A DNA stretch of 64,000 nt from a virus: positions 7,523 through 71,522 of the IMG/VR virus record IMGVR_UViG_3300017971_007887; one strand, 5' to 3'. The notes beneath the pieces are model-generated. The model did not search any database. It was not told where the DNA came from and was given only the letters and a program-made list of their open reading frames with translations. Shown piece after piece: positions 6,820 through 62,437 of this stretch. Within the stretch, counting starts at the first letter, position 1. The number at the start of each line of letters is the position of its first letter. The position numbers and the translations under genes are program-made.

Positions 6820-8337
6820 TTCAATATTCCCTTTTGGCAATTCTGGCGAATATGTGCCCATTTGCTGCCATCTCATCTTTGCAGTCATCACACCAGCACA
6901 AGGGGCAGTCGTCACACATCGGAACAAACTCCGCCATCAACGTATCGTTCCACCAGAAGCCGCAATCATGTTCTGTGCCTGCGTCTGTTTCTGTCACTTT
7001 TAGATGTCTGCAGGTCTGGGCCGGTTTGTCTCCACAACGGCCACACATTCGTACCGATTTTTTGGGGGTCATGATTCCTCCCTGGGTAGGGCTTGGGCTA
7101 GCTGGCAGTCAGGAGTGTGCTTCCCCCCTCGCTCAAGAAACCCGCACGCTGGGCATTTCCCATAATCACGTTCCACAGTAAGTGCTGTCATGTCTGTACC
7201 ACCCCAGCCACCAGCCCACTCCACCTCTTCCAACGCATCCCATGCAGACAAGAGGGCGTCGCAAATATCGGGAAAATTCGTTCTGTCGTGACCCCACCCC
7301 TTGAGATCTACCCTTGCGGGCTTTTACCTCTTTCCTTGTTAGCTTCATGATATCTTCTCTGGATGCAGGTAGGAATCTCGCTCAAACTCACTCACCACCC
7401 ATTCATATATTTTGACCGCCATGGCTTCGGCTCTTGCCAGTGTGGTCGAATCCGGCAGAATCGCCCAGAGCAGGTTATTGATCTGCTGCTTGGTGTCCTC
7501 CTGTATTTTGGTCTGCATGTCCTGCTCAAGAAATTCATCAAACGTCTGGTTACTGTCTGCCTTCATGATTCCTCCGGGTACTTCTTGCCGGTTCCTTGGC
7601 AGGTTGGGCATGGCCTGAAAATATATTCCGACTTCCCGCCCGAGCTACAGGTCGCCCAACCGTAGCCATCCTCTTTGTGCAAGCAATCCTTCTTGGCAAA
7701 GAGTTCACAGCGAGGCACCCCGGTTTGGGGATCCTCGTAGCATGGGTGTCGATGCTCAGATTTTATTCCATCGCCGCCCACACCACAGCATATGGAGCAG
7801 GGCACCTCCCCCTTGACCCTTGCGAGTTCTGATCGGAGCTTGTCTATTTCGTTGTTGCGAATCTCCAGTGCATCCCATAACTCCTTGACGGCAACCTCTT
7901 GTTGGCTTGCATATATTCCAGATGCAAATTTCTGATAATCCATTTCTCTATACGCATCCCTCAGTACCCGGAAGGCTCTGCGCTCTTTGCACTCCAGGCT
8001 AGATGCCGGTCTTGACTCAAACCAACGCGTTTTGCACCTGCGTTCACTCCGATCCCACCACGGGCAATCACCGCATGTCTTGGTTGCCATCTAGTCCTCG
8101 CTGTCTGCATTCTGTGATTCGTATTCATTACGAAGCACATCGTAGATTTCACACGCGATTCTTTCTGCCCGGCCAAGCGTAGTAGTGGCTGGTAGACACA
8201 CCCAAACAAGCTCGTTGATCTTCTCTTTGGTGTAGTCTGGCATGTTGTAATGACAGTCTGTGCTCTGTAGCATTTGAACATCTCTTGAATCTTTCATCCC
8301 TCAACCCTCCTGAAAAGAGATCACCCACACCCAGGGG

Positions 8338-22806: not shown

Positions 22807-22821
22807 TTAAACAGTGTTTAA
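22807..22821. promoter_or_regulatory. palindrome copy 2
   Basis: TTAAACAGTGTTTAA; intergenic, abuts the SD. Confidence 0.8.
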
Positions 22822-30502: not shown

Positions 30503-30517
30503 TTAAACACCGTTTAA
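30503..30517. promoter_or_regulatory. palindrome copy 3
   Basis: TTAAACACCGTTTAA; overlaps a stop codon and abuts the SD. Confidence 0.8.
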
Positions 30518-39174: not shown

Positions 39175-39189
39175 TTAAACAGTGTTTAA
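39175..39189. promoter_or_regulatory. palindrome copy 4
   Basis: TTAAACAGTGTTTAA; intergenic. Confidence 0.8.
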
Positions 39190-40315: not shown

Positions 40316-40583
40316 GTCTGCCTCCGTATTGATCGATGCCCGACACGAACACGTTCCACGGATGGTGCCTTTCCACCAGCCACCTGGAGCGGTCATCGAA
40401 GTACCTTCCGATCCGCCGCCTGATCTCGGACAGGCCGAATATCTGCAGCAGCTCCTTCAACCGGGTTCTCTGCCGGCCGGACAACCGGAGTGCCGACTGC
40501 TCTCCGTGGGTCGACAAGTACTTCGATCTATACACCCGTTCCACGATTCCGATCAACACCTTTGTCGGTGCCCTCTTTTTCAT
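40221..40583 (-). CDS. small protein resembling a replication-initiator C-terminal domain
   Basis: RLKELL..G..EI.RRI.RYF; directly upstream of the DnaC-like gene. Confidence 0.45.
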   Translation of the reverse strand: MKKRAPTKVLIGIVERVYRSKYLSTHGEQSALRLSGRQRTRLKELLQIFGLSEIRRRIGRYFDDRSRWLVERHHPWNVFVSGIDQYGGRHGKKEGRQEYPEERTDWIKKDIEAYKQGKGG

Positions 40584-40902
40584 TTCTCCCCTCTCCGTTT
40601 TTTTTTTCTTTTCCAATCTCCCGTCAGGTTTCCTTTTCCGCCAACGGGAAACTCCAATTATTTTTTTCCGGTCCCCTCCCTTACGTAGTAAGGAAAGTAA
40701 TAGGGGGTTAAGTTAATATATATAGATCTTTTAAAAAGAGGGAGACGGGAAAATAAAAATAAATTTCCTAGAATCCCTCAAACCCTACCCTCCGGTCGTG
40801 AATTCTGGCACCTGTCCTCGAAAAACCGGTTCTGGAATTATTTTTCGGTGCCTATTTTATTTTCCACCGAAAAAGATCCGGCTGCCTGTTTTTAAACACT
40901 GT
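40584..40902. other. AT-rich non-coding region, candidate replication origin
   Basis: ttaagttaatatatatagatcttttaaaa core, flanking inverted repeats, CCTTAC-GTA-GTAAGG, next to initiator/loader genes. Confidence 0.55.
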
Positions 40903-40906
40903 TTAA
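40892..40906. promoter_or_regulatory. palindrome copy 5
   Basis: TTAAACACTGTTTAA at the helicase stop / edge of the ori-like region. Confidence 0.8.
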
Positions 40907-42369
40907 CAGTCGTCCACCGACAGTACATCACAGATCGAACGCAGCTTGTTCAGGAACTCGCGCTCCCTGCGAACCCTGACCTCGTGGGTGTCGGTGTCCC
41001 TCTCCCTCGGCCACATCCTACGATCCCAGAAGTAAACCGCGGTCCCGAACTCCTTGTCGCCGTGAGGCCGGGCCGCCCTTCCAAACTGCTGAACCATCCT
41101 CCTGGGGTGCCCGTGCACAGGGCACGTAAGCAGCACGTGGGTCAAAGGGGGAATGTCCAGACCCTCGTCCGCCACGGTAGTGCCAACCCCTACCCTGCAC
41201 CTGCCGGTGCGGAGCCCGTCTATCGTATCCGCCTGCTGGTCCTTGTAGTCGTTGCCGCCGACCAGCAATCCACTGGTGTATCCGGCCCTGTCGAACCTGG
41301 CCACCCACGACCTGCAGGCCTCCACCCGGTCGTTGAGCATCAGGATCCGGGCGGACTGGTCCCGCAGGATCTGCTGTGCCCTCTTCCAGATGATCTCGTT
41401 CCTATCCTCGTCGCCGTTCAGGTTGGCCAGCATGGCGTTCCAGTCGGGAGTCACCTGGGCATCGATTGCGTCCTGATAATCCTCATCCCAGAAGTCAGTG
41501 GGCACCACCTCGATCCGTGTCGGCAGGAGGCGCCCCGCCTCCATCACCTCCTGGCGCTTGATCTCGGTGGCCAGAGGACCGAACGACTCGTAGATCATGT
41601 ACTCCAGGCCGTCCTTCCGGGTCTCGTCTGCGCTGCACCCGATCCGCCACCTGGCCGAACAGTGGTGCGTGGTGGCCTGGAACGTGTTGGCCGCCCAGTG
41701 GTGGATCTCGTCGCCAGCCAGGCACCCGAAGTCCTTCCACCAGGGGGCATCCGGCCTACGCCAGATGGTCTGTTGAACCCCGACCGTCAGGCTGCGAATC
41801 ACCGTCTGTCTGCCACCCCCTATGGTACCAGGAACCACTCCCAGGAACCTGGACGCAGCCGCTATCCACTGTTGCATGAGCGGCTTGCTGTGCACCACCA
41901 CCAGGGTCGGCTGACCTATCTCAGCTATGGCTCCCAGCAGACACACCGTCTTCCCGCTACCACACGGGCCCTTGAGCACGCCTCCACCCGCCTTCACCAG
42001 CTCCATGGCGGCCCGCTTCTGGTACGGCCTGAGCGGCTCCCTCATTCTGAACCTGACAGGGTCATGGAGCACCGTGTGGTCGTGGGGCTTGTCAATCCAT
42101 GCGCCCTCGGCCGCTAATAGATCCCTGACGGTTCCAAGGGAACCGCGCGGCAAAAGTATCCAGGGCTCCCTGACCTCGTACGACCGCAGATACCTCTCGA
42201 TCCCCTGCGGGTTCTGCTTGGTGGGCCCAGTGTAGAATCCCCGACGCTTGGCGTTCTTCCACTTGGGGTTCTCGCGCGTGAACCGCTCACGCAGCATGTT
42301 GACCAGCACAGGTCCAAGGTCGTCGATCTGCAGTGCCAGGTGCGTGTCGATTGCCGATCTGATATTCAT
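40903..42369 (-). CDS. superfamily 2 (DExH) helicase
   Basis: LRPYQ, GPCGSGKT, GDEIHH, DEGLDIP, QQFGRAAR. Confidence 0.92.
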   Translation of the reverse strand: MNIRSAIDTHLALQIDDLGPVLVNMLRERFTRENPKWKNAKRRGFYTGPTKQNPQGIERYLRSYEVREPWILLPRGSLGTVRDLLAAEGAWIDKPHDHTVLHDPVRFRMREPLRPYQKRAAMELVKAGGGVLKGPCGSGKTVCLLGAIAEIGQPTLVVVHSKPLMQQWIAAASRFLGVVPGTIGGGRQTVIRSLTVGVQQTIWRRPDAPWWKDFGCLAGDEIHHWAANTFQATTHHCSARWRIGCSADETRKDGLEYMIYESFGPLATEIKRQEVMEAGRLLPTRIEVVPTDFWDEDYQDAIDAQVTPDWNAMLANLNGDEDRNEIIWKRAQQILRDQSARILMLNDRVEACRSWVARFDRAGYTSGLLVGGNDYKDQQADTIDGLRTGRCRVGVGTTVADEGLDIPPLTHVLLTCPVHGHPRRMVQQFGRAARPHGDKEFGTAVYFWDRRMWPRERDTDTHEVRVRREREFLNKLRSICDVLSVDDC

Positions 42370-42388
42370 CCAAGTCACCTCAGGAACA

Positions 42389-42419
42389 ATTATAACCCAT
42401 ACTGGTGATACAGAGTAAA
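42389..42419 (-). promoter_or_regulatory. possible sigma70-type promoter for the replication operon
   Basis: TTTACT...TATAAT with a long 19-nt spacer, just after the terminator. Confidence 0.4.
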
Positions 42420-42421
42420 CC

Positions 42422-42462
42422 AAAAAAAAAATCCCCCAGGGGCGCGTTGCCCTGGGGGATTT
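42422..42462 (-). terminator. intrinsic terminator closing the early region
   Basis: AAAUCCCCCAGGG-loop-CCCUGGGGGAUUU followed by a long U run. Confidence 0.85.
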
Positions 42463-42465
42463 TCC

Positions 42466-42942
42466 CTACTTCATCGAACGCGTGCCGCGGCATCCTGGAT
42501 ACTTGGCGCAGCCGTAAAAACTCGGCTTCTTCTGGCCCTTCTTGGCCCGGGCCACCATCCGACCCTTGCAGACGGGGCACTCTGGAAGTGTGCTGGCCGC
42601 CTTCCAGGCCTCCCTGCACCGCTTCCGCATGTTGTCCAGGAAGCTCTTGGTGCGGTAACACCTGGACGACTTCCAAACGCCCTTCCCGGTCTCCCGGTCG
42701 ACTAAGATCACCCGGCCGGCGTCCGCGCCGCATTCCCGAGTGCCGTTCCTGGCCACCGACGTGTACGCCCGGATGACGAGACCGGTATCGGCATGCTGCC
42801 TGTTGGGATCTGATTCGACTTGGATCACCCCGCGCTCGAACACCATCTCGTTGCAGCCCGGCAGATCTACCTCCTTGAATCCCATCTCGTGGAACAGCCC
42901 TTCGACTTCCTCTCTGGTTCTTTCAACGTATCTAGTTCCCAT
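42466..42942 (-). CDS. protein with topoisomerase-type C4 zinc finger
   Basis: CPVCKGRMV...FYGCAKYPGCRGT. Confidence 0.75.
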   Translation of the reverse strand: MGTRYVERTREEVEGLFHEMGFKEVDLPGCNEMVFERGVIQVESDPNRQHADTGLVIRAYTSVARNGTRECGADAGRVILVDRETGKGVWKSSRCYRTKSFLDNMRKRCREAWKAASTLPECPVCKGRMVARAKKGQKKPSFYGCAKYPGCRGTRSMK

Positions 42943-43820
42943 TTTTTGCCTCCTTCGATGGCCAGATGTCTGACGAGCGTGTATAGAAATACCGCTTGTT
43001 CAAACACCGGAGCACCATCTCTTTCTTTCCGTGGTCGACCAGTTCCAGCTTTCGGACATGCGGTTCAGGAAATCCGTGGTCGCCATCGACCTTCCTTCTC
43101 CTGATCTCTTCCTTGCAGGTTTTGATCGCGTTCTTCTTGGAAGAAAAATACTGGCTGTGGCCGATGCCCTCTGGACAACCGTCGTCGCAATCCTTGACCC
43201 AGCACGCCTCGTAAACAATCATGGTGCACCAGATTCGTGCAAACGGCGCAGCAGTACCGCCCAGATATAACCCGGACACCTGGCCACCACGAACATGCAC
43301 AAGTCCTTCAGGTCGGTATGATCCAGGCGACACTCCATGCCCTTCTCGTACCAGTCCATCAGGAACTCCAGCGCACCGGGTACCGTTTCCGTATATGACT
43401 TGTTGAAGTTGCCAGATATGTGGCCCTGAATATGCATAACTGTGGCTTGCAGAGCATAACAGAAATCTTGCTCATCGACTGCGCCCTTGGCTTTTGCCAT
43501 GAACAATTTGTAAGCTTCGTGTTCTAACATCACGGCACCTTCTTTCCGACTTGGTATCCCCGCATTTCCAAGAACGCCGTCGCTGCGATTTCCGCGCAGT
43601 CCGGTTGGAACCTTTCCAACAAATCGAACAGCGCTTGCGGAACGCCGACTGTCCATAACTCGTTCGGCATGGCATTCATGATCTTCATCCACCAACGTGC
43701 ACAAGTGGTGATGTATGCGTCTGCCATCTCCTCGTTCTTGTACAGTCGTTTGGACTCTTTGCTAAAGTTCCTGTCGATTCTTACCATTACTGGCCTTTCC
43801 ACTTTCTTTTTCTCGGTCAT
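42932..43820 (-). other. three small early ORFs (42932-43222, 43219-43533, 43530-43820)
   Basis: Overlapping start/stop junctions; the first follows leader repeat copy 1. Confidence 0.6.
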
Positions 43821-43823
43821 TTT

Positions 43824-43890
43824 CTACCTCCCTGTTTTGCACGGGTCCATTCCCGCGATAAGACCCTGCAGGTTTTTACACCTGCAGGGC
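43824..43890 (-). repeat. two-hairpin/extended-SD leader, copy 1
   Basis: CCCUGCAGGU-GUAAAA-ACCUGCAGGG..UAU-CGCGGG-AAUGGA-CCCGUG-CAAAACAGGGAGGUAG. Confidence 0.9.
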
Positions 43891-43896
43891 AATCGT

Positions 43897-46614
43897 TTAT
43901 AACAAACCACCTTCCTGCAAAAATCTGCTCGGTGACAGCGGCCTGACCTTGCCGCCCATCAACGCGCCCCTCGGACTGGTAATCATCAGATGGTCCCGCG
44001 CCCTGGTAACGCCCACATAAAACAATCGGCGTTCCTCAGCCGGCCCGACACCATCACCCTCAAATCCATCGGCCCTGGCATGGGGAAGCACCATCTCGCA
44101 GGCACCCGCCAAGAATACCACCGGCCACTCCAGACCCTTGGCCTTGTGCAAGGTGCTGATCCACACCGCGTCCGGCTGCTCGTCGTCCTCCTTGGCCTTC
44201 CTCTTGGTGTCCAGGATGTTGTCCACGTACTCCAGCATCTCCTTGGCCGTCTTGAACCTGCCGGCCGTTCGGCACAGTTCCCGAAGGTTGCTCAGCTTGC
44301 TGTTCTCCGCGGTGTCGGTGCCCTCGTCCTTGATGATCCACTCTTCGTATCCGCTCACCTCGATCAGCTTGGCCAGCGCCTGCGGAAGCACGCTCTGCTC
44401 GGCGTCGTTCGGCTCGATGTCGTCTCGCAGATTCTGTACCAGGCTGACGAACTCCTCGACCGCTCTTTCCTGCTTGCTCCAGATGCCCAGATCGTACATC
44501 CGAACATCGGAAGCTACCTGCATGAAGTTACCCGCCGACTCCATCTTGTCGATGGTCTTCTTGCCGATGAACCGCCACGGTCGGTTGATGGCCCGTTTGG
44601 CGCTCTCCACGTCGTTCTCGTCCACGGCCACCCGCAGGTACGCCAGGATGTCGGCCACTTCTTTGCGCTTGTAAAACTCGGTGCCGCCGACTACCACGTG
44701 CGGGATTTTCTCCCGGATGCAGACTTCCTCGAACGCCCTGCTCTGCGCGTTGGTGCGATACAAGATCGCCATGTCCTTCCAATCGACTCCGTCCTCGTGA
44801 TAGGCCCGGATGCGCTCGACCACCGTCTCCGCCTCCGCGTCCATGCTTTCGCAGGACACGTACTCGACCGGATTGTTGTCCGGCCTGGTGGCCACGTTGG
44901 TCTTGGTGATCCGGTCCGGCTCGTTGCCGGTGATCACTTGGTTGGCGATCTCCAAGATCTGCGGAGTGCACCGGTAGTTGTGCTCCATGCGGAACACCCG
45001 CGCGTTGAACCGCTCCTCGAACGTCAAGGTGTACTCCGGCACGCTCCCGCGCCATTCATATATGCAGTTGTCCACCACGATGCCGTCCGCCACGTAGTTG
45101 TGATGCTCAGCCACCTCTAGGGATACGACTTCACCACTGTACTCCTCACAAAACTTCTTATGCACCGTTGTCCAACCATTGCCCGAAAGATGAACCTGCA
45201 TCATGCCAGGAATGATGTTCGCCGCGTATGCTCTAAATGTTTTGCTGCCATGTCTTCCACCCGCGCGTCCCCATTTCGATTCCTTGCTTTTGCTAGATGG
45301 TGGAAACGGCCACAATGGACAGTGCTCCTGTAATTCGAAATCATCGAACAGAACATCGACAGTGCTGATTTTTCTAACATACCTGAACAAATCAGCCAGC
45401 CGTACTTGACCCAAAACATGCTTGGTCTGCGACTTAAAGCAAGCAGTTGGGATGCGATATTGTAAAGATATTTTTTGTTCCTGCAATGCCGCATCTCCCT
45501 TATTGTCGTAAACCGAAAGTATCCAAGCAGCGTCCGCTTCTTCCAGTCGTGCACGTTGTCCCAGGTGAAATGCACCGTCCATGTTGAACATCTGGCACCA
45601 GCCCACCCTGTAGTCGTCGCCCTTTTTCATCAGGTAGCACGCCCATCGTTCGGTTTTCTTGTCCGCCCATCTGACTGGAATCTTGTGATCTGATGTCGCC
45701 CTGGTTGAACAGTGACCTGCAAGAATCGTGTACAGGTCGCCATAGTACGAACGCCGTTTGGTGCGAACAACTCTCCTGTGCCCACCCACCTTACCATTGT
45801 GAGACTGGAACACCCGAACCATGTCACCGACTTCTAAGGAACCAAGTTCGACTATTCCGTCTGCAGTTTCTACTTCGGTGTCCGGTGGCTGGCACTGGTC
45901 GTCGTCACCGACCACCAGCAAGACCTTGGCCTTCTCTGCCAAGATCTTCATCAACTCGTACTGAGCCGCGTTGCTGTCCTGGAACTCGTCCACGATCACG
46001 TGATCGAACATGCCCTGCCACTTGCCGCGGGCATGCGGGTCTTCCTGCAGATACCAAACCGCCCCGGACATCATGTCGTCGAACGTCAGCAGTCCCAGCA
46101 AGTGCCGGCACCGCTCGTACTTGCGATAGACCTCGACGTACCGATGGTCCGGGTGACTGGCGTCCTCCGGCTTGACCAGGGAGCCCTTGCAGTTGCTGAT
46201 GTACTGCTCCAGGTCGGTGATGTCGGCGTCTTCCCACTCCATGCCGAACACCCCGCTGTTCTCGACGGCTTCCTTTTTGCACCAGCCCAAGATGTCCTTG
46301 AGCACATAGTGCATCTTGTTGCCGTCCACCTTGTACTCGGCTTCGGGGCTGCCGTCGCGAACGATCTTGTATCCCAAGCTGTGCAAAGTGCGCACGTCCA
46401 CTTGGGGTATGCCGATCCGCTCCTGCATCTCCAACGCCGCGTTCTTGGTGAACGTGGTGCACAAAATCCGCTTGGCCGAGCAGCCCTCGTCCACTCGCTT
46501 CCTGACCCAGCACTCGACGGTGTGTGTCTTTCCCGAGCCCGCGACCGCGCAAACGATTGCGTTGCCCTCGGTGTGGTTCACCACTTCTTGCTGTGTCTCG
46601 TTCAGCTTTTTCAT
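43897..46614 (-). CDS. uvrD: UvrD/PcrA (SF1) helicase containing an intein
   Basis: AVAGSGKT, VDEFQD, VGDDDQ|CIYEWRG, NYRC, TLHKAKGLEW, EERRLFYVGVTRAR. Confidence 0.93.
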   Translation of the reverse strand: MKKLNETQQEVVNHTEGNAIVCAVAGSGKTHTVECWVRKRVDEGCSAKRILCTTFTKNAALEMQERIGIPQVDVRTLHSLGYKIVRDGSPEAEYKVDGNKMHYVLKDILGWCKKEAVENSGVFGMEWEDADITDLEQYISNCKGSLVKPEDASHPDHRYVEVYRKYERCRHLLGLLTFDDMMSGAVWYLQEDPHARGKWQGMFDHVIVDEFQDSNAAQYELMKILAEKAKVLLVVGDDDQCQPPDTEVETADGIVELGSLEVGDMVRVFQSHNGKVGGHRRVVRTKRRSYYGDLYTILAGHCSTRATSDHKIPVRWADKKTERWACYLMKKGDDYRVGWCQMFNMDGAFHLGQRARLEEADAAWILSVYDNKGDAALQEQKISLQYRIPTACFKSQTKHVLGQVRLADLFRYVRKISTVDVLFDDFELQEHCPLWPFPPSSKSKESKWGRAGGRHGSKTFRAYAANIIPGMMQVHLSGNGWTTVHKKFCEEYSGEVVSLEVAEHHNYVADGIVVDNCIYEWRGSVPEYTLTFEERFNARVFRMEHNYRCTPQILEIANQVITGNEPDRITKTNVATRPDNNPVEYVSCESMDAEAETVVERIRAYHEDGVDWKDMAILYRTNAQSRAFEEVCIREKIPHVVVGGTEFYKRKEVADILAYLRVAVDENDVESAKRAINRPWRFIGKKTIDKMESAGNFMQVASDVRMYDLGIWSKQERAVEEFVSLVQNLRDDIEPNDAEQSVLPQALAKLIEVSGYEEWIIKDEGTDTAENSKLSNLRELCRTAGRFKTAKEMLEYVDNILDTKRKAKEDDEQPDAVWISTLHKAKGLEWPVVFLAGACEMVLPHARADGFEGDGVGPAEERRLFYVGVTRARDHLMITSPRGALMGGKVRPLSPSRFLQEGGLL
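45067..45894 (-). mobile_element. intein (276 aa) in helicase motif III
   Basis: Starts CQPPDTEV, block B TSDH, ends HNYVADGIVVDN with +1 Cys; AT-richer than its flanks. Confidence 0.9.
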
Positions 46615-46617
46615 TTC

Positions 46618-46683
46618 CTACCTCCCTGTTTTGCCCAGGTTCATTCCTGGGATATAAACGGTCACGCCTTTTACACGTGACCG
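46618..46683 (-). repeat. leader repeat copy 2 (before UvrD)
   Basis: CGGUCACG..CGUGACCG; UAU-CCCAGG-AAUGAA-CCUGGG-CAAAACAGGGAGGUAG. Confidence 0.9.
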
Positions 46684-46689
46684 CCTTGT

Positions 46690-46965
46690 CTACGTTGCTG
46701 GATGTAACGAGCAATCGTCGCGGTGTCCCGCGCCTTCCCAGCAAAAGCACTGATCTGACAACCCGAAATCCCATGCCTCCAATGCACACACGACCGAGCT
46801 GCCGTCGTCAAACCGGAATTTGACGGGATCGTCCGTGTGATCGCCCGAGCGAATTTCTTCCGCCACGATTGCCAGCGCTTCGCACCAGTCGCGGTCTCCA
46901 ACAGACCAGCACTGGCCATCCAAGTCCTCGAAAAACTGCTTCGCAAATTTTCTTGCTTGGCTCAT
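46690..46965 (-). CDS. acidic hypothetical early protein
   Basis: ATG follows the repeat SD; FRFDDGS. Confidence 0.65.
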   Translation of the reverse strand: MSQARKFAKQFFEDLDGQCWSVGDRDWCEALAIVAEEIRSGDHTDDPVKFRFDDGSSVVCALEAWDFGLSDQCFCWEGAGHRDDCSLHPAT

Positions 46966-46967
46966 AA

Positions 46968-47095
46968 CTACCTCCCTGTTTTGGCCCTCCCCTTTTTGAA
47001 AACGACCGGGCAAGGAAGGGAGGAACCCTGCCCGGTCTTGCCCCGCCGCAACAGTGCGGCAGACTCCGGTGGCCGATGTTATCCGGCCACTCGGG
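46968..47095 (-). repeat. leader repeat copy 3 (variant with an anti-SD hairpin)
   Basis: CAAAACAGGGAGGUAG preceded by GACCGGGCAGGG-UUCCUCCCUU-CCUUGCCCGGUC. Confidence 0.75.
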
Positions 47096-47103
47096 GCTAT
47101 ACC

Positions 47104-47442
47104 TCAGTCCATGATGTAAATGACACGCGCGTTCCAGTCTTTCAACACGTTCCTGGCGGCGACGGTTGCCGATGCCCGCTTGTTCGCCTGGCCATGCGTG
47201 TAGCTAAGCCCATAACCGCGACCGTACCACCGACCACTATATCGATACCCACCAAACTGCTTGAACAAGGCATCCAGCTTCTTGCTCAGTCTAGAGCCGA
47301 GCGGACAATTCTTGCCGACCGGGATCAACACAAAATCCATGTTGCAGGTCCCACCGTCGTCAGTTTGACTGGCCGCAAAACTCGCCGCCCTGTTCGCGTT
47401 CCTGAGATCTTGGACTAACTTTTCTTCTTGTTTTTTGTCCAT
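47104..47442 (-). CDS. hypothetical early protein
   Basis: DDGGTCNMD...GQANKR motif. Confidence 0.7.
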   Translation of the reverse strand: MDKKQEEKLVQDLRNANRAASFAASQTDDGGTCNMDFVLIPVGKNCPLGSRLSKKLDALFKQFGGYRYSGRWYGRGYGLSYTHGQANKRASATVAARNVLKDWNARVIYIMD

Positions 47443-47444
47443 CA

Positions 47445-47508
47445 CTACCTCCCTGTTTTGCGCCGCTCAATTGCGGCGATATAGTCTCCCGGGATTTTAC
47501 TCCCGGAA
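47445..47508 (-). repeat. leader repeat copy 4
   Basis: CCGGGA-GUAAAA-UCCCGG; UAU-CGCCGC-AAUUGA-GCGGCG-CAAAACAGGGAGGUAG. Confidence 0.9.
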
Positions 47509-47515
47509 AACTGTC

Positions 47516-47923
47516 TTACTCCTCTTCCGGCCACTTCTCCTTGATGGCCACTGCGATGTACCTCACCGACCGGAACGGCCGCGGTTCGATCCGATCCAAC
47601 ACTTTGAATTTCAGCACCCTGGACACCGACCACTTCTTCGGTCGCCCTCCTAACGCGCGCTCCCATTCTTCCCTGGCCCGGTCGATAGCGGTCTGCGGTT
47701 TTCGATGTCGTCCCCACGCGCCCTGCCCGTATTCGTTGACTAGATGCACCTCGTATTGGATCGAGCAGTTGTTCAACATGTTGCGAACAAACCGCCGTCC
47801 ATTTTCAAATTCCAAATACTTCTCCAGGCGCCGTTCCACTGTCCAACAATTGACGCAGCGTTTCGTGCCAGTGTAGTCGGTCGGTTCTCCGCACGTCTTG
47901 CAAGGCACCTTGACCGTCATCAC
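47516..47923 (-). CDS. hypothetical Zn-finger early protein
   Basis: CKTCGEPT...TKRCVNCW. Confidence 0.6.
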   Translation of the reverse strand: MMTVKVPCKTCGEPTDYTGTKRCVNCWTVERRLEKYLEFENGRRFVRNMLNNCSIQYEVHLVNEYGQGAWGRHRKPQTAIDRAREEWERALGGRPKKWSVSRVLKFKVLDRIEPRPFRSVRYIAVAIKEKWPEEE

Positions 47924-48774
47924 ATCACCTCGTACTTCAGAATCTTCTTCTTGGGGTTGTACAACACCTTCACGTCCGGGCCGTCCTCGCCCAGTTGGGT
48001 CCGGGCGCTCAGGGTGTACCCGGCCTTCTTGTTCCTCTTGCCGGTCTCCTCTCCAAGCTGCACCAAGCCGGTCTCCCCGGCCTTCACACCCACCTGCTCG
48101 CGCTTGCGGGCCCTGGCGCTGGCCTTGACTTCCTTGGCCGGCTTGCTGACCTTCTCCACGCCGTTGACACCGGATACCTGGGCCGCCCGTTCCACCTTCT
48201 TGGGCCGTCCGGGCGACCGGGACTCGATGCCCCGTTCCGCACGCTGCTTTTTGGCCACCTGCTTCAACTCCGCGGCTGTCGCGCCGTCGGCAGCCATGCG
48301 GGTCAACTCCTTGCGGGCGTCCTCGTCGCTCGCCCGGGCGATCACGTAACTGATGCTCGGGCCGAACCTAGCGGCCATGTTGCGGTCCATCGCCCTGGCG
48401 ACCGCCATCATGTTGTACGCCGTTTGCGGCGTTCGGATCTCCTTGATGGACGCCAGGTACTTGCTGAACGACTCATGTCCGCCGTACTTCCAAAGCATCT
48501 TGTCCTGCACCTGCAGGAGCGCCTGACCGACTTCGAAAAACCGCAGCCCGATCTCCCGGGTTCCGGCCTTTACCTGCTCGGTCAGGTCTTCCAGCTCTTT
48601 CTGATTCCTGGTGTGATTTTCAGAGCCCGGGGTGTTGTCGATCACCGTGATGCGCCGTCCGGTGTCCGTCACCTCGCCGGTCTTTCCGTTGACGACTTTC
48701 AATGTGTCCTGCTCGGTGGCCGGCTTCGTTTTCATGCCCGGCTTCGATCCGTACTTCCGTTTCGCCTGTGCCAT
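47920..48774 (-). CDS. basic DUF3102-like protein
   Basis: FFEVGQALLQV..LWK..GHESFSKYL..TAYNMMAVA; similar to 34110-35144. Confidence 0.6.
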   Translation of the reverse strand: MAQAKRKYGSKPGMKTKPATEQDTLKVVNGKTGEVTDTGRRITVIDNTPGSENHTRNQKELEDLTEQVKAGTREIGLRFFEVGQALLQVQDKMLWKYGGHESFSKYLASIKEIRTPQTAYNMMAVARAMDRNMAARFGPSISYVIARASDEDARKELTRMAADGATAAELKQVAKKQRAERGIESRSPGRPKKVERAAQVSGVNGVEKVSKPAKEVKASARARKREQVGVKAGETGLVQLGEETGKRNKKAGYTLSARTQLGEDGPDVKVLYNPKKKILKYEVM

Positions 48775-48778
48775 GTTC

Positions 48779-48843
48779 CTACCTCCCTCGTTTGCCCGCT
48801 CCATTGCGGGATAACAGTTCGCAGAAGTATTCCCTCTGCGAAC
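48779..48843 (-). repeat. leader repeat copy 5
   Basis: GUUCGCAGA..UCUGCGAAC; UAU-CCCGC-AAUGGA-GCGGG-CAAACGAGGGAGGUAG. Confidence 0.9.
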
Positions 48844-48848
48844 CTGCG

Positions 48849-49401
48849 CTATTTCCTCGGAGGGGCCGGCCACACGTCGAGCAGCCCTTCCCGAATCTGC
48901 GCGCCCTCCAGGACCCAACAACCAGCGCCTACGTACACCCACGATTTACCGTCCATGATTTTCTTCTCACCAATCTTCATTTCGTCACCCTCCTGACCAC
49001 TTCTGTAGCAACCGCCTTGGACTCCTTTTCGTCCAAACCGAATTCAAAATTGATGATTCTTCCCAGGTAAAGCACCGCCCATTTTGGCGGGTCGTTGGGA
49101 TACTGTGCGATCCTGATCTTCGCCAAGGTACCCAAGAACACCGACCGTCGGGCGAAGTCTTTGACCAGCTCTGGATCCACCTGGCACCGCTTGCAGTAAC
49201 TCTCGCTCTGGTTTTTCTTTCGTCCGCAGGTGCATTTGCTTGAATTGACTGTCATGATAGTTCCTTTCGAACGGTTGATATCACGTGCCATTTAATGGCG
49301 CCAATTTTCTTCATGGTCACATCCTCATGACCGATTATTGTTTTTACGATAAAAAATTCACCAGTCTTCAACGTATAAACAATCTTTCGAAAATCGACCA
49401 T
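48849..49401 (-). other. three small early ORFs (49252-49401, 48977-49255, 48849-48980)
   Basis: Hand translation: MVDFRKIV.. (49 aa), MTVNSSKC.., MKIGEKKI.. (43 aa); ATGA overlaps. Confidence 0.55.
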
Positions 49402-49403
49402 AA

Positions 49404-49470
49404 CTACCTCCCTGTTTTGCCCGGGTTCATTCCCGGGATAGAACGGGGCCGGAATTCTATCCCGACCCCG
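49404..49470 (-). repeat. leader repeat copy 6
   Basis: CGGGGUCGGGA-UAGAA-UUCCGGCCCCG; UAU-CCCGGG-AAUGAA-CCCGGG-CAAAACAGGGAGGUAG. Confidence 0.9.
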
Positions 49471-49475
49471 CCAAC

Positions 49476-50423
49476 TCAGTCGCTTCCGTTGGTGGGCTCT
49501 TGTTCGTCGAACTTCCGATCCAAGATGTAGTCGACCGCCTTCTGGGCCCGTTGCGCCGCGCTGACGATCAGTTTAGGATCGTCCTTCAGCCGCTTGGCCC
49601 AGCTTTTGATGTATGCCGCGCTGTTGCGGTCCACCTTCGGACGGCGCAGTCCGAACTGCGCGTCCAACATGGCGGCCCCGATTTCCGCGACCAACTCTTC
49701 CTTGCTGTAATCCTCGCTGCCGAACGGGTTGATCCTGGCGTCGTAGTCGAACCGCGCACAACGTCCCGGGGTGCCGGTGCTGTGAACAGTCTCGTGCGAC
49801 CGGGTGCGGACATACTCCACGCTGCTCTTGTACTGGCTTTCGGACGGGATGGTGATCGAATCGTCGGCCGGCCGATAAAACGCCCGGTCCGAGCCTTCCT
49901 TGACCTCGATGCCCTCGCGCTTGATGTAGTCGACAAACGCCATGGTCGATTCCTTCACCGACTTGGCCAACGCCTTGCCGTTTTTCTTGGGCTTGTTTTT
50001 GGCCCGAGCCTCTTTGAGCCACTTGGGGTACTTGCTCTTGGGAACGGTCGTTTGCTCCAACGACCAGACCCGGTAGTAGAACATGGTGAAGCTCTTGCGA
50101 ACCTCGTCCGTCTCGGCGCCCTTCTCGTCCTTGACCTTGTACCCGCTGATTTTCCAAAACACCACCGGAATGGACTTCTCGCCCTTCTTGATCCGGCCGC
50201 CCGCTGCGTTGATCATCTTCCTGGTGAGCCAGGGTCCTTCCCGGCCGGTGCTCAGGGTCATCAGCCAATTGAGACCCCGGTACTCCTTGCCGTTCCACCG
50301 ATGGGTGGAAGTGCCGTTGGAAATCCACGGCTTCTCCCATGGGGGAATGTCGTCGTCTTGCATGGCCTGCACGAAAAAATCGGTCACCTTCTGATACGGA
50401 TAAGACACTTTGCCATTCTTCAT
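49476..50423 (-). CDS. ardC: ArdC-like antirestriction protein (ssDNA-binding + zincin-like)
   Basis: PPWEKPW, YRGLN, GGRIKKGEKS..VVFW, AFYRPADDSI.IP, HETVHSTG, YSKEELVAEIGAA. Confidence 0.9.
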   Translation of the reverse strand: MKNGKVSYPYQKVTDFFVQAMQDDDIPPWEKPWISNGTSTHRWNGKEYRGLNWLMTLSTGREGPWLTRKMINAAGGRIKKGEKSIPVVFWKISGYKVKDEKGAETDEVRKSFTMFYYRVWSLEQTTVPKSKYPKWLKEARAKNKPKKNGKALAKSVKESTMAFVDYIKREGIEVKEGSDRAFYRPADDSITIPSESQYKSSVEYVRTRSHETVHSTGTPGRCARFDYDARINPFGSEDYSKEELVAEIGAAMLDAQFGLRRPKVDRNSAAYIKSWAKRLKDDPKLIVSAAQRAQKAVDYILDRKFDEQEPTNGSD

Positions 50424-50425
50424 AA

Positions 50426-50490
50426 CTACCTCCCTGTTTTGCCCGCATCATTGCGGGATAGAGGCGCGACCCGGGAATTACCCGGGCCGC
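50426..50490 (-). repeat. leader repeat copy 7 (before ArdC)
   Basis: GCGGCCCGGG-UAAUU-CCCGGGUCGC; UAU-CCCGCA-AUGA-UGCGGG-CAAAACAGGGAGGUAG. Confidence 0.9.
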
Positions 50491-50499
50491 CCTGCCGGT

Positions 50500-50823
50500 C
50501 TAGTCGGGAATGGATGCCCACTTGCTGACCGAGCGCCGATAGAAGGCGCCGTTCTTTACCATCCAGTCGGCTTCCTTGCGGGCCTTGTCCATGATCTTCC
50601 GGCGCGCCACCCTCTCGTCGCCGTCGTCGCCACAGAAATGACCGATCATCAGGTTGATCAGTTCCTGCCTGATGTGCTGCAGGCTGCCGACGCAGTTCCA
50701 GTCGCCGTCGCGGCCCAGCTCCTCGGACACCTCAGCGACGACCTTCAGCAGTCCGCTGATCTCCTTGGTCGCCTCGGACACCAGGTTGATCCTCCGCTTC
50801 TCGTCCTTGTTCAGCTTCGCCAT
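50500..50823 (-). CDS. hypothetical protein, first early ORF
   Basis: DWNCVGSLQHIRQEL helical motif. Confidence 0.7.
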   Translation of the reverse strand: MAKLNKDEKRRINLVSEATKEISGLLKVVAEVSEELGRDGDWNCVGSLQHIRQELINLMIGHFCGDDGDERVARRKIMDKARKEADWMVKNGAFYRRSVSKWASIPD

Positions 50824-50827
50824 CTCG

Positions 50828-50958
50828 TACCTCCCTGTTTTGCCCTGACGTGATTGCCAGGGATAGGACCCGGTGACCCGTTACGGTCACCGAGCCAGAC
50901 ACCTACTCGTTCTGTTTTGCCCGGCGTCGCCGGGATGGTTGTAAAACTCGTTTTACAA
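50828..50958 (-). repeat. leader repeat copy 8 plus SD-less copy 9
   Basis: UAU-CCCUGGC-AAUCAC-GUCAGGG-CAAAACAGGGAGGUAC; upstream CAU-CCCGGC-GAC-GCCGGG-CAAAACAG. Confidence 0.85.
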
Positions 50959-50959
50959 T

Positions 50960-51577
50960 TTGCCCCGTCCGGGAATCGAACCCGAACAAACCCTCCAGGG
51001 GGACACAAGCCCGGACGAACCGGGCTGTTCCAACACACGTCGATAGACGTGCACGCACCATGTGACTCGACCACGTTTTTGCCCGGAGTGTGCCAGGCCG
51101 ATTCGCGTCAAGTCGATGCGATTTAAAACTAGGGAGGAGGTAGATTTCTAAATCGCCGGCTGCAACCTAAAACCGTCGGTCGGTTCGCCTCTTCGATTTC
51201 GTTCTCCAGGAATTCCCCGGCTCCCTCCTTCAAGGGTTCACCGCGCTCTTTCGAGCGGCGGTCCTGTCTAGACCGCCTCGCTTCATTCCTGGTTCCTGGT
51301 TCCCCGTGGGGTCCTGCCAGCGCCGTTCTTGCTGCCCGCTGGCACCCGGCTAGTTCGCCGGTTGGGCTGTTCGGGTCGCCCCTGCGCTCACCCTTCGATT
51401 GTCAGCCGCACCTAAAAACGCCGGTCGCGATTGCACGCAGGGCTAAGCCGCTCGTCCGGTTCGTGATGTCGGATGCTTCCGGAGTCGCCGCTGTTGGCGC
51501 TCGACGGACGGTGGGGACCGTGCCCATGACCGCTGCCGCCTTGCTTGCCCTGCCGCTCTGTGAGGTGCTTGCTCATA
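50960..51577 (-). ncRNA. candidate ~600-nt structured non-coding RNA or long leader
   Basis: No credible ORF; many hairpins; anti-SD loop hairpin at 51118-51156; internal repeat 51155-51182/51401-51427; T-loop hairpin at the 3' end; promoter upstream. Confidence 0.6.
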
Positions 51578-51582
51578 TGACC

Positions 51583-51612
51583 ATTCTACCAGGTTTACAT
51601 TGTAAACCAAGG
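51583..51612 (-). promoter_or_regulatory. extended -10 promoter with overlapping palindrome
   Basis: TTGGTT-N16-TAGAAT with TGn extension; perfect GGTTTACA-N-TGTAAACC at 51592-51608; upstream T-tract. Confidence 0.6.
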
Positions 51613-51798
51613 AAAATTCCGACAAAAAAACTAAGTAATTGCGGTCAGTTGTATGAATATTTTGGACGAGGGGTTGTTCCGTCTGTGGGACGCCTGCGAC
51701 GACTGTGGTCACCCTGGCTGCCAGGGACGATTGTGGTCTGCCTGTGGTCCTCCTAGCATCCGTTGTGTGGTGCGCCACAGCTCGCTGGCAACCCAGGC

Positions 51799-52038
51799 CT
51801 ACCGGCCTGGCCGGCCAAAAAATCCTACAACCTGGTTGAGCCGCCGTAGGTTTTCTGTGGATGGAGCGGTGCTGCCGCGCAACCACTTGCCGACTGCCAC
51901 CCGACTGGTATGGACAGCCCGAGCGACGCCGGCCAAGCTACCGAGCAGATGCACCGCGCAGCGCACCAGCATTTCCACCTGACCGACCGGCATGCGCTTC
52001 TGCTGGCCATCATCGTCTTCATAGATCACTGCAGCCAT
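51799..52038 (-). CDS. Cro/XRE-type HTH regulator
   Basis: SLAGVARAVHTSRVAVGKWLRGSTAPS.ENLRRL. Confidence 0.75.
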   Translation of the reverse strand: MAAVIYEDDDGQQKRMPVGQVEMLVRCAVHLLGSLAGVARAVHTSRVAVGKWLRGSTAPSTENLRRLNQVVGFFGRPGR

Positions 52039-62355: not shown

Positions 62356-62370
62356 TTAAACACTGTTTAA
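62356..62370. promoter_or_regulatory. palindrome copy 6
   Basis: TTAAACACTGTTTAA; upstream of the tail chaperone. Confidence 0.8.
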
Positions 62371-62406
62371 AAAGGGCGGCGGCCGGTTGCGAGCCAGGCC
62401 GCCGCG
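62367..62406 (-). terminator. terminator after the major tail gene
   Basis: GCGGCGGCC..GGCCGCCGC-CC-UUUUU. Confidence 0.6.
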
Positions 62407-62437
62407 GTTGCCCGGTGGCTCCTCCGGGATGTCGCTC

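Follow-up and report, generated by a model that had tools for sequence, protein, structure and literature searches.

What is the role of a structured leader that recurs between the gene blocks of a single phage cluster, with stems that vary from copy to copy and yet continue to pair? The window analysed here, a stretch of 64,000 nucleotides from a metagenomic phage genome of ~71.5 kb, carries a set of two-hairpin modules on its minus (coding) strand between 43821 and 50965, comprising seven canonical copies, a variant at 46968, and a copy at 50912 that has no ribosome site. We propose, judging from the sequence and giving the idea an even chance of being right, that the modules act as RNA punctuation: stabiliser and translation cassettes that are probably cut in the linker between their two hairpins.

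The repeat set and its genes

Each module runs from a stop codon through a strong, variable hairpin 1, a linker of ~4 nt ending in YUAU, and hairpin 2 (a 5-7 bp stem with an AAU-initial loop) to CAAAACAGGGAGGUAG and the ATG of the next gene. A strong stem-loop lies 3' of every stop codon, with hairpin 1 beginning 3-9 nt beyond it, the distance from hairpin 2 to the SD is fixed, and every copy is placed exactly with respect to its stop and start codons. The conserved string is CAAAACAGGGAGGTAG. Few bases are conserved, the ribosome site accounting for most of them; those that are unpaired are UAU, AAU, and CAAAACAG, the last being retained even in the SD-less copy, and AAU opens the hairpin 2 loop in 7/7 canonical copies despite their differing stems.

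A search with a 16-mer returned eight matches with at most 2 mismatches between 43824 and 50842, while a ninth match at 10479, with 3 mismatches (0.6 expected from shuffles, and nine reached in 0/100 shuffles), is probably due to chance. We searched the whole genome (71,700 bases, both strands, no filters) with a covariance model trained on 6 copies. The nine modules came out on the minus strand, the seven canonical copies at 35-65 bits (E <= 2e-8), with the variant at 20.6 bits (E 9e-4) and the copy lacking an SD at 15.1 bits (E 0.047). The remaining six matches have E values of 0.49-8.5, one of them being hairpin 1 of the module at 50426 read on the plus strand, and the model found no module on either strand of the phage genome outside 43821-50965. 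Together with the predicted folds (see below), these searches bear out the original prediction of a repeated two-hairpin and SD leader at these positions. That prediction also placed a degenerate, hairpin-2-like copy at 62408-62431 on the minus strand (AUC, CCCGG, an 8-nt loop, CCGGG, and CAA), 3' of a tail gene and followed by a canonical terminator and a 15-bp palindrome. This is the sole extra site among the 9 matches, all on the minus strand, to a loose descriptor (ATC, stem, loop, CAA) for which chance gives ~1 and at most 5; it is absent from the matches of the covariance model at E <= 10 and so inseparable from chance.

Read in the direction of transcription, all on the minus strand, the series opens with the SD-less head unit (50905-50965), which precedes no gene. 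Its AU-rich palindromic hairpin, TTGTAAAACGAGTTTTACAA (50939-50958), is joined by a 4-nt linker to a hairpin-2-like stem with the 3-nt loop GAC (50912-50934); the unit also has CAAAACAG and folds into two hairpins separated by that linker (z -1.7); its type of palindrome occurs five times in the relative L061. Module 1 (50824-50904; 35.4 bits, z -3.2), with a 7-bp hairpin 2 and the loop AAUCAC, precedes a 107-aa gene (50500-50823) that has a homologue in the relative L002. Module 2 (50424-50499; 59 bits, z -4.2), where the minimum-energy fold allows the SD to pair with a CCUCU upstream of it, precedes an ArdC-like anti-restriction gene (49476-50423) with ArdcN and MPTase-PolyVal domains and a match to a PHROG annotated as anti-restriction protein. 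Three small ORFs (49252-49401, 48977-49291, and 48849-48980) follow module 3 (49402-49475; 64.5 bits, z -3.4), and module 4 (48775-48848; 49.6 bits, z -5.3), with the tail CAAACGAGGGAGG, precedes a 284-aa gene (47920-48774) and a gene coupled to it (47516-47923). A two-hairpin leader also precedes the L061 orthologue of the gene after module 4.

Module 5 (47443-47515; 62.4 bits, z -5.4) is followed by a 112-aa gene (47104-47442) and then by the variant module (46966-47103; 20.6 bits, z -2.6), in which two extra hairpins, a terminator-like hairpin (CCUCCC loop, GUUUUC tail), and GGGGAGGG come before CAAAACAGGGAGGUAG and a 91-aa gene (46690-46965). The variant aligns with the L002 leader immediately 5' of UvrD, and L061 has a similar terminator with a CCUCC loop. 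Module 6 (46615-46689; 64.9 bits, z -5.1) precedes a UvrD-type helicase gene (43897-46614), and module 7 (43821-43896; 63.2 bits, z -3.6), with one G-U pair in hairpin 2, precedes an ORF at 43530-43820 and two more small ORFs. We infer from gene order that these genes are early. Their description as anti-defence genes holds for ArdC only: UvrD is a helicase of the ordinary kind, and of the 11 ORFs scanned in the cluster, 8 have no Pfam family at E <= 0.001, two of these having weak matches (E 0.02-0.13) and one a PHROG of unknown function.

Fold, strand, and transcript boundaries

Hairpin 2 is under compensatory change. In an alignment that is fitted to the model and whose copies are paralogues, 40 of 41 cells are paired and both sides change in four of six pairs; the covariation score is reached by 0/500 shuffles, and slid controls are 17-54% paired. 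When the eight intergenic regions are folded by minimum energy, two hairpins and a free SD result, with z-scores of -2.6 to -5.4. The SD is unpaired in 5/7 canonical copies, and exactly 4 unpaired nt separate the hairpins in four of them. In 8/8 regions the sense RNA is more stable than the antisense RNA (in total, -299 vs -255 kcal/mol), with 27 G-U pairs in sense against 9 in antisense. The claim of stems that vary yet pair, with G-U pairs on the coding strand, stands. A match to a described Rfam family, which the original prediction had set as a check on itself, was not found at any gathering score. The compensatory changes, the sense-strand G-U pairs, and the fixed SD distance, along with this lack of an Rfam match, support the module being a coding-strand structure, most simply an RNA.

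Do such RNAs mark the ends or the beginnings of transcripts? We rejected the modules as intrinsic terminators: hairpin 1 has no directly following U run, its tail being paired or YUAU and without U-tracts (a short U run occurs only in the 46968 variant), and none of the seven canonical hairpin 1 stems was reported by a terminator scan. Canonical U-tract terminators are present elsewhere in the phage, at the cluster end (42421-42463, minus strand) and after the tail gene (near 62375-62405), and thus the missing U-tracts after hairpin 1 look deliberate. The terminator at the cluster end, as read from the sequence, has a long GC-rich stem including AAAAU/AUUUU pairs and then a T run, and it lies directly 3' of a zinc-ribbon gene (42466-42942). 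It is likely the end of the early operon, and a cluster closed in this way looks like a single operon with internal punctuation.

No sigma-70-like site scoring at least 9/12 was found on the minus strand of 43400-51600, where the host consensus may differ, and a whole-genome scan gave nine weak minus-strand promoter-like sites, none of them inside the cluster. The leader at 50824-51442 has no promoter-like site, and our search upstream of the cluster yielded no early promoter; neither a sigma factor nor an RNA polymerase was found in the ~95 ORFs scanned. No promoter of the sigma-70 type fits the modules, nor does a classic terminator, a phage RNA polymerase, or any Rfam family. The original prediction had offered an ssDNA hairpin promoter as an alternative. 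A promoter of this kind, known from phage N4, needs a virion RNA polymerase, a giant protein of ~3,500 aa, and it is not supported here: the largest ORF has 1062 aa, and the scanned ORFs show no RNA polymerase domain.

We regard as unlikely that the module is a PeSL-type cassette, in which an attenuating stem-loop would be joined to a promoter of a type unrecognised here (through an unusual host consensus or a phage factor) and each block would be its own transcription unit. PeSLs have their parts arranged in this way, from the stop codon through stem-loop, promoter, and SD to the start (PMC2839356), and -10-like hexamers occur in hairpin 1 loops 13-15 nt before UAUC (TAAAAT at 47445 and TAGAAT at 49404), but these have no -35 element or TG extension before them, and a sigma-70-like site of at least 9/12 is found in 0/8 copies. 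In L002, TTGACT-N18-TATACT lies directly 5' of the hairpin-2 homologue, with TTGACT in the loop of the first hairpin, TATACT in the linker, and an 18-nt spacer between them; this match would start transcription inside the hairpin-2 homologue, and hence a promoter cassette fits better there. In the window, however, a start 7 nt past a linker -10 would fall inside hairpin 2, which covaries with sense G-U pairs, and the scanned ORFs supply neither a sigma factor nor a polymerase to recognise it.

Related loci and the proposed role

The covariance model finds one weak match among the relatives, in L002, and none in the others. Two gene-content differences from these relatives, which are few and distant, start at a module. 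The block behind module 7, after UvrD, is missing in four of them (L060, L002/L054, L061, and L058), the closest relative, L060 (71% helicase identity), having no module after UvrD; and, compared with L002, the window has an extra ORF and module between the variant leader and UvrD. The cassette shuffling first suggested for this cluster is thus hinted at, from few and distant genomes. A tblastn search of the 11 cluster ORFs against 24 related loci left 8 without a match, with many of these loci stopping short of the far-upstream region.

Could the modules then be repeats with no regulatory role, spread along with gene cassettes either as an intergenic repeat that is selfish or prone to recombination, or as mere duplicates of a strong ribosome site with hairpins nearby? 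The homogenised SD tail is particular to each phage (CAAAACAGGGAGGUAG here and GCUAAAAGGAGGAAGUCAUG in L061), and both the differences starting at modules and the 8/11 ORFs without a match would fit. However, missing genes are weak evidence when many of the 24 loci end too early, no copy deviates in its placement against stop and start codons, and stems that have diverged with pairing kept and G-U pairs on one strand only point to selection on the fold. We give this explanation hardly any weight.

Two of the related loci also contain ribozymes. Type II hammerheads, defined by three stems around a CUGANGA/GAAA core and a score at or above the Rfam gathering score, are present in between-gene gaps of L061 (3261-3329; 58.2 bits against a gathering score of 37) and L003 (1861-1929; 48.5 bits), in the region matching the module cluster. 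These are two of the 31 related loci scanned with Rfam, many of which are short. The conserved SD tail of L061, GCUAAAAGGAGGAAGUCAUG, occurs there in four copies, three after two-hairpin leaders and the fourth just after the ribozyme, and a hammerhead cut after GUC would put a hairpin on each new end. As for the modules, we rejected them as hammerheads (Rfam clan CL00010): the window has no match at gathering score, and 43400-51500 has none at E <= 5.

We consider it very improbable that the two-hairpin unit cleaves itself, as a small RNA of a class not yet described, in place of the hammerheads of the relatives. New ribozyme classes have been discovered through searches near known ones, and the unit occupies the same kind of place as the hammerheads in two relatives, has a hairpin-short linker-hairpin order equivalent to stem III, cleavage site, and stem I of a type II hammerhead, and keeps UAU, AAU, and CAAAACAG conserved and unpaired. 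Against this, the CUGANGA/GAAA core is absent, no ribozyme family is matched even at E <= 5, the few conserved bases are mostly due to the ribosome site, no pseudoknot or conserved junction is apparent by eye, and the L061 linkers are not conserved.

Most likely, then, one long early message is divided and protected by the module signal. This transcript would extend from ~51000 to the terminator at 42421-42463, with the modules as punctuation marks within it. Hairpin 1 would cap the 3' side of the preceding cistron, whereas hairpin 2 would cap the 5' side of the next and hold the A-rich spacer and strong SD unpaired, a free standard SD giving every gene block the same efficient, context-independent start. 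An endonucleolytic cut in the ~4-nt YUAU linker is likely, probably by a host RNase; the piece upstream of the cut would then end in a hairpin, and the mRNA downstream of it would start with one. Such hairpin-capped pieces would be poor substrates for exonucleases and for 5'-end-dependent decay. The processing and stabilising role put forward in the original prediction has support of an indirect kind, from the hammerheads of L061 and L003, the closing terminator, and the hairpins without U-tracts.

Conservation of AAU at the start of loop 2 suggests a reader of this loop; a cap with a purely structural function would not need it, which counts against a cap-only reading. Hairpin 2 with its AAU loop may be an operator for a trans-acting protein or small RNA that switches translation or stability of the early genes jointly, like T4 RegA or RegB. 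The AAU-initial loop in 7/7 canonical copies with differing stems, the fixed distance to the SD, the GC hairpins with AAU-initial 6-nt loops that come before the SD in leaders of L061 and of the phage L154, and the CCUCC-bearing loops of the variant module and the leader, able to pair with the shared SD, are all consistent with this. On the other side, the phage ORFs include no recognisable RNA-binding protein or RNase, the loop of the SD-less copy reads GAC, and it is ambiguous whether the L061 hairpin is homologous to hairpin 2 (the alignment matches its 5' arm with the 3' arm of the window). We give an operator, which would be compatible with punctuation, a small chance.

A wider, as yet undescribed family of leader hairpins, GGGC-AAUCAA-GCCC-GA, is found in many viral contigs, with 20 of 34 matches lying 11-31 nt before an ORF. 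Kinship with this family is part of a further, unlikely possibility, namely that the two-hairpin unit is a new and dedicated kind of RNA cleavage signal, either a tiny self-cleaving motif or the target of a so far unrecognised endoribonuclease, from phage or host, that reads the AAU loop, and the counterpart of the type II hammerheads of the relatives.

In light of our preferred reading of the modules as punctuation, what would they offer the phage? Phages need their first genes, often anti-defence genes, fast and even from one entering transcript. If the module cuts and caps, it would be a compact, protein-free route from an operon to separately stable, equally translated messages, in parallel with the apparent role of hammerheads in related phages and with the insulators that synthetic biology builds from ribozymes or Csy4. 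The eight variants, with their compensating stems, amount to a natural set of mutants, and the modules are a lead towards new RNA processing signals near known ribozymes.

Comparison with known systems

An integron attC array, defined by an integron integrase and by folded sites that each end in conserved R''/R' core sites, was rejected: no integrase or recombinase domain was found in the phage ORFs scanned, and no GTTRRRY-type core is seen by eye at the module ends. In the early polycistronic transcript of T7, RNase III cuts between genes, and the hairpin left at the 3' ends stabilises the message. The modules are similarly structured signals between the genes of one proposed early transcript. 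However, T7 RNase III sites are single irregular hairpins of ~two helical turns, with a duplex of ~20 bp or more, and the modules were rejected as sites of this type, being separate hairpins whose stems (10-14 bp and 5-7 bp in the predicted folds) are too short for a typical site.

Termite-leu (Rfam RF01730) is described as known only from termite gut metagenomes and of unknown role (Weinberg et al. 2010, PMC2864571). It shares with the modules two hairpins, a UAAA-type first loop, a UUAUA-like linker, and an A-rich tail, and one module, module 6, aligns over the whole model. This is a sub-threshold match of 25.4 bits, with 19.0 for the second best, against a gathering score of 51, and only 2/9 copies match at E <= 5; we therefore rejected this family too.

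The SAS elements of Cluster K mycobacteriophages are reported as asymmetric SD-containing sequences a few bases before the ATG of a subset of non-structural genes, in one orientation and often with an inverted repeat upstream (2011, PMC3203893). The modules resemble them in having an SD-bearing conserved sequence before the ATG, one orientation, and an inverted repeat upstream. The SAS is GGGATAGGAGCCC, a 13-bp consensus lying 3-8 bp before the start, and the ESAS are 17-bp inverted repeats conserved in sequence, whose departures, by that account, do not support RNA pairing, its authors favouring DNA-binding proteins (PMC3203893); their function is still given as unknown in print (PMC12699233). 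We rejected the modules as SAS/ESAS because their conserved string is CAAAACAGGGAGGTAG and not GGGATAGGAGCCC, and because their stems vary and compensate, the opposite of what is described for ESAS (PMC3203893).

By definition, a PeSL of T4-type phages combines a strong sigma-70-like promoter with a stem-loop that terminates transcription (Arbiol et al. 2010, PMC2839356). Like PeSLs, the modules are stop-to-start repeat units with a stem-loop and SD among small, non-conserved early genes; a further likeness, gene content that differs between relatives at the repeats, is hinted at by the two differences that start at a module. Unlike PeSLs, they have no U-tracts and no promoter boxes, -35 and -10 boxes within the repeat being found only in the L002 homologue, and they have two hairpins, of which the second covaries as RNA.

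Finally, clustered hammerheads are described in polycistronic RNAs of prophages and phages. In prophages they lie on either side of single genes or of short blocks, the anti-restriction gene ardA among them, and in vitro they cut polycistronic RNA (Perreault et al. 2011, PMC3088659). The modules have no hammerhead core and no match to any ribozyme model. Self-cleavage is not expected from their sequence, with a cut by a host RNase and no cut being equally likely. What they share with these prophage ribozymes is a structured RNA in the gaps of a same-strand operon and a flanked anti-restriction gene (ardA there and ArdC here) (PMC3088659). Thus, the modules resemble known kinds of element: PeSLs, SAS/ESAS, and the ribozyme-punctuated operons of phages.

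A putative early gene cluster with a repeated leader between its genes

We find that eight genes of the putative early cluster (minus strand, 43821-50965) are each preceded by a leader of two hairpins and a Shine-Dalgarno (SD) sequence, with one copy to an intergenic gap and the ATG following next. The genes so preceded, all on the minus strand, encode a 107-aa protein (50500-50823), an ArdC-like protein (49476-50423), the product of 49252-49401, a 284-aa protein (47920-48774), the product of 47104-47442, a 91-aa protein (46690-46965, with a variant leader), a UvrD-type helicase (43897-46614), and the product of 43530-43820. The remaining cluster ORFs lack the module and either overlap the preceding stop codon or follow a short gap (34 or 57 nt). 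The repetition put forward in the original prediction is upheld by a motif count and by a genome scan. The motif CAAAACAGGGAGGTAG occurs 8 times on the minus strand within 43824-50842, with ~0.6 expected by chance, and a covariance model made from six copies, run over the whole genome without filters, recovers the seven canonical leaders, scoring 35-65 bits, as well as the 46968 variant (leader 46966-47103; 20.6 bits) and a copy lacking the SD at 50912, at the cluster head (15.1 bits). All of these matches are on the minus strand, and the best remaining match in the genome has an E-value of 0.49.

Hairpin 1 (10-14 bp) starts 3-9 nt past the stop codon and is unrelated in sequence among copies, with an A-rich loop that reads GUAAAA in three of them. 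A short linker with YUAU at its 3' end leads to hairpin 2, a stem of 5-7 bp closed by a 6-nt loop that starts with AAU in all seven canonical copies; it is followed by CAAAACAG, the SD core GGAGG (within GGGAGG), 5-7 nt and the ATG. In minimum-energy folds, exactly four unpaired nucleotides separate the hairpins in four of the seven canonical copies and in the SD-less unit. The eight gaps have fold z-scores of -2.6 to -5.4 against dinucleotide shuffles. Alone among the leaders, that of the ArdC-like gene (50424-50499, minus strand) has an upstream GCCUCU which, in its minimum-energy fold, is paired to the SD and encloses hairpin 2; this may partly mask the gene from translation.

The differing stems still pair, as had been proposed: in an alignment fitted to the covariance model, of copies that are paralogues within one genome, hairpin 2 has standard pairs in 40 of 41 cells and both-sided change in 4 of its 6 pairs. 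Its covariation score was reached by none of 500 shuffles, and sliding the partner lowers pairing to 17-54%. Given this compensation, it is in our view highly improbable that the module is a repeat without a role of its own. The noted bias of G-U pairs to the coding strand was likewise found (27 in the sense and 9 in the antisense RNA across the eight gaps), and the sense RNA is the more stable in all eight (totals of -299 vs -255 kcal/mol). The structure, strand and placement of the module are established. The strand bias is consistent with RNA or with the non-template strand of the DNA, and speaks against both a cruciform and a double-stranded protein-binding site. We hold an operator bound by a trans-acting factor to be unlikely; the early proteins have no RNA-binding, nuclease or regulator assignment in Pfam, PHROGs or the protein atlas. 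The conserved AAU of the loop exceeds what a structural role alone would call for and may have a reader, whether regulator or nuclease.

Transcription signals and genome context

The source record is a single contig of 71,522 bases, of which the window covers bases 7523-71522; GC skew is negative throughout, and the minus strand carries nearly all long ORFs. Judged by its Pfam and PHROGs matches, the genome is that of a tailed phage, with a T4-type portal, large terminase and tape measure protein, replication genes (family B polymerase, DnaB, primase, RecA-like, SbcC-like and RuvC-like resolvase), methyltransferases and a ParB-like protein. No integrase, repressor, sigma factor, RNA polymerase or ribonuclease domain was recognised in the ~95 ORFs scanned, and the sole lead for the 284-aa early protein is a DUF3102/ParB-HTH-like assignment. 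The UvrD-type helicase has 905 aa (669-695 aa in relatives), with Pfam domains at residues 4-241 and 542-880 and tblastn matches split in two pieces; it therefore holds an insert of ~200-300 aa. Between the downstream helicase gene and a DnaC-like loader gene lies an AT-rich gap of 506 nt (40397-40902) with short direct and inverted repeats, a candidate replication origin. The window stretch is contained in four metagenomic DNA runs, of sediment and of seawater, none of the listed runs that contain it is of RNA type, and the contigs from the four runs represent the same phage only, with no variant inside any module.

The modules lack transcription signals. A search of 43400-51600 gave no sigma-70-type site on the minus strand, and none of the nine weak promoter-like sites found on that strand genome-wide is in the cluster. 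The 620-nt leader upstream of the cluster has no promoter-like site, and a promoter search of 50800-51900 gave a single weak extended -10 candidate, located in the upstream gene. No hairpin 1 qualifies in a terminator scan. Textbook terminators are used elsewhere in the phage, one at 42421-42463, directly behind the last gene of the cluster, and another behind a tail gene, and the internal hairpins therefore look built not to terminate. Thus, the early cluster looks like one operon of ~8.5 kb. Readings of the module as a sigma-54, IHF, RNase P or attC site were rejected by eye on spacing or core bases.

Three further elements are found near the cluster head. The palindrome TTGTAAAACGAGTTTTACAA (50939-50958, minus strand) has a single copy in the window, and three of the hairpin 1 loops repeat its half-site TGTAAAA; L061, a relative introduced below, carries five near-identical palindromes of this type (732, 2613, 5324, 6724, 9332), each with an SD right after it. 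At 50961-50990 (minus strand) is GGGTTCGATTCCCGGACGGGGCA, resembling a tRNA T-arm and 3' acceptor with the rest of the tRNA absent, possibly the remnant of an attachment site, or else a tRNA-like leader tag; its exact 27-mer has no match, its exact 21-mer has three in prokaryote genomes, none within an ARAGORN-called tRNA gene, and no tRNA is called by ARAGORN anywhere in the window, which also lacks an integrase. The leader contains a CU-rich, anti-SD-like string, CUACCUCCUCCCUAG (51129-51143, minus strand), and a terminator-like hairpin with CCUCC(C) in its loop occurs upstream of UvrD in the window (46990-47040, minus strand) and in two relatives (L002:6255-6320; L061, ~7230-7290). Both are potential pairing partners of the GGGAGG that the ribosome sites share.

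What might the module do? We give roughly even credence to its being the punctuation of one long early transcript, with a role in both protection and translation start. Hairpin 1 would shield the upstream message at its 3' side, and hairpin 2 the next message at its 5' side, leaving the A-rich spacer and SD unpaired, and we infer that a cut in the short linker would give both new ends at most a few unpaired bases. Ends with few unpaired bases beside hairpins withstand 3' exonucleases and 5'-end-dependent RNases.

Related leaders and hammerhead ribozymes

Relatives were gathered through the downstream helicase (40903-42423), which belongs to a metagenomic family with 40-48% identity, yielding 51 viral and 79 metagenome loci. 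A blastn search of phage records with 43500-51200 gave no match, an exact 17-mer of the window had one match in IMG/VR, in an unrelated giant virus, and single-protein searches (ArdC, 284-aa protein, helicase) gave no usable loci, the 284-aa alignment search returning the contig of one relative, L002, again and nothing further. Over 46 viral and 70 metagenome loci, the covariance model found nothing convincing except a weak match in L002 (duplicated as L055) at 3984-4031. Here, a TTGACT-N18-TATACT match directly precedes a CCCGC/GCGGG hairpin and CAAAUAGCAGGGAGGUAG, the strongest argument for the module being a promoter cassette; with no promoter boxes in the window's own copies, we think this rather unlikely.

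In L060, the closest relative (71%), the gap from UvrD to the next gene is only 26 nt, with a 13-bp palindrome. L060 carries the palindrome TTAAACAGTGTTTAA between these genes, and the window has six sites (0.4 expected) at 3970-3982, 22808-22820, 30504-30516, 39176-39188, 40893-40905 and 62357-62369, at four of which, outside the early cluster, an SD (CAGGAG or another) and a start codon follow immediately. From sequence, TTAAACAGTGTTTAA is likely a phage regulator's binding site or an AU-rich leader hairpin.

The covariance model is blind to the leaders of L061 (46%), three of which run from a variable hairpin through CGGGC-AAUCAA-GCCCG to a conserved tail, GCUAAAAGGAGGAAGUCAUG; one such two-hairpin leader stands before the orthologue of the 284-aa gene. 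We dropped the idea that the L061 hairpin is a hairpin 2 orthologue with flipped pairs. The alignment matches GCGGGCAA to the 3' arm and tail of the window, and we therefore speak of a shared design rather than base-by-base homology and make no claim of cross-phage covariation. IMG/VR has 34 loci (L137-L170, e.g. L157:2930-3050) with the 16-mer GGGCAATCAAGCCCGA of this hairpin (GGGC/GCCC stem, AAUCAA loop), in 20 of which an ORF of at least 40 aa begins 11-31 nt downstream, the proteins being mostly unrelated. The element has no Rfam match, and its 14-mer appeared in no paper in a literature string search. In six related loci and L061, the flanks CUGAUU...CCCGC around the variable hairpin can pair with GCGGGCAAUCA as an alternative, longer helix (the CUGAUU...GGGCAAUCAAGCCCGA element); in one group the layout is CUGAUUCCCCGYG, GNRA-loop hairpin, GCGGGCAAUCA. 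An unrelated IMG/VR phage (L154; 470-1540, 3000-3035) has four leaders with a short GC hairpin and a 6-nt loop beginning AAU (AAUAAC, AAUAGU twice, AAUCAA), 14-17 nt before starts of the GAGGATAT-ATG type.

Two of the 31 related loci scanned with Rfam, many of them short, carry a type II hammerhead (RF02276; gathering score 37) in a between-gene gap upstream of the helicase, followed by an A-rich leader, SD and start codon. The one in L061 (3261-3329, plus strand; 58.2 bits) has an intact core and directly precedes the fourth of the SD tails in this relative; a cut after its GUC is predicted to leave a hairpin-ended upstream piece and a downstream mRNA with a hairpin one base from its 5' end. 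That in L003 (42%; 1861-1929, plus strand; 48.5 bits) lies between a stop-proximal hairpin and the A-rich leader with its SD. According to Perreault et al. (PMC3088659), clustered hammerheads in prophages flank single genes or short blocks, including ardA, and prophage polycistronic RNAs with hammerheads were cleaved in vitro. By analogy, between-gene RNA cutting would thus occur in this phage group, in gaps like those of the module. The module might itself be a new self-cleaving motif, but it has no hammerhead core and we hold this to be very unlikely.

Cassette behaviour and comparison with known systems

By tblastn against 24 related loci, many of which end short of the upstream region, 8 of 11 cluster ORFs have no match. 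In L060, L002/L054, L061 and L058, UvrD and a zinc-ribbon gene are neighbours with 17-130 nt between them; the window has the module at 43821-43896 and three ORFs in this place, and L003 and L068 likewise have inserts there. In addition, the variant leader aligns with the L002 leader directly before UvrD, while the window has the 91-aa ORF and the module at 46615-46689 in between. These differences fit shuffling like that of PeSL cassettes (PMC2839356). The suggested cassette shuffling is hinted at by these two cases only.

The window holds no match at the gathering score of any Rfam family, so that the described family which would have spoken against the original prediction did not appear. 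The best match in E-value mode, Termite-leu (25.4 bits, with 51 required), is alike in layout only. Among known systems, the module would act like ribozyme-punctuated phage operons, but without a hammerhead core, and like the early RNase III sites of T7, but without a duplex of two helical turns. It resembles PeSL cassettes, from which it differs in having no promoter boxes, and SAS/ESAS cassettes, whose SAS consensus it lacks; ESAS repeats are not compensatory (PMC3203893), whereas the module stems compensate. What is new is the two-hairpin, promoter-less, covarying form, beside relatives that use hammerheads.
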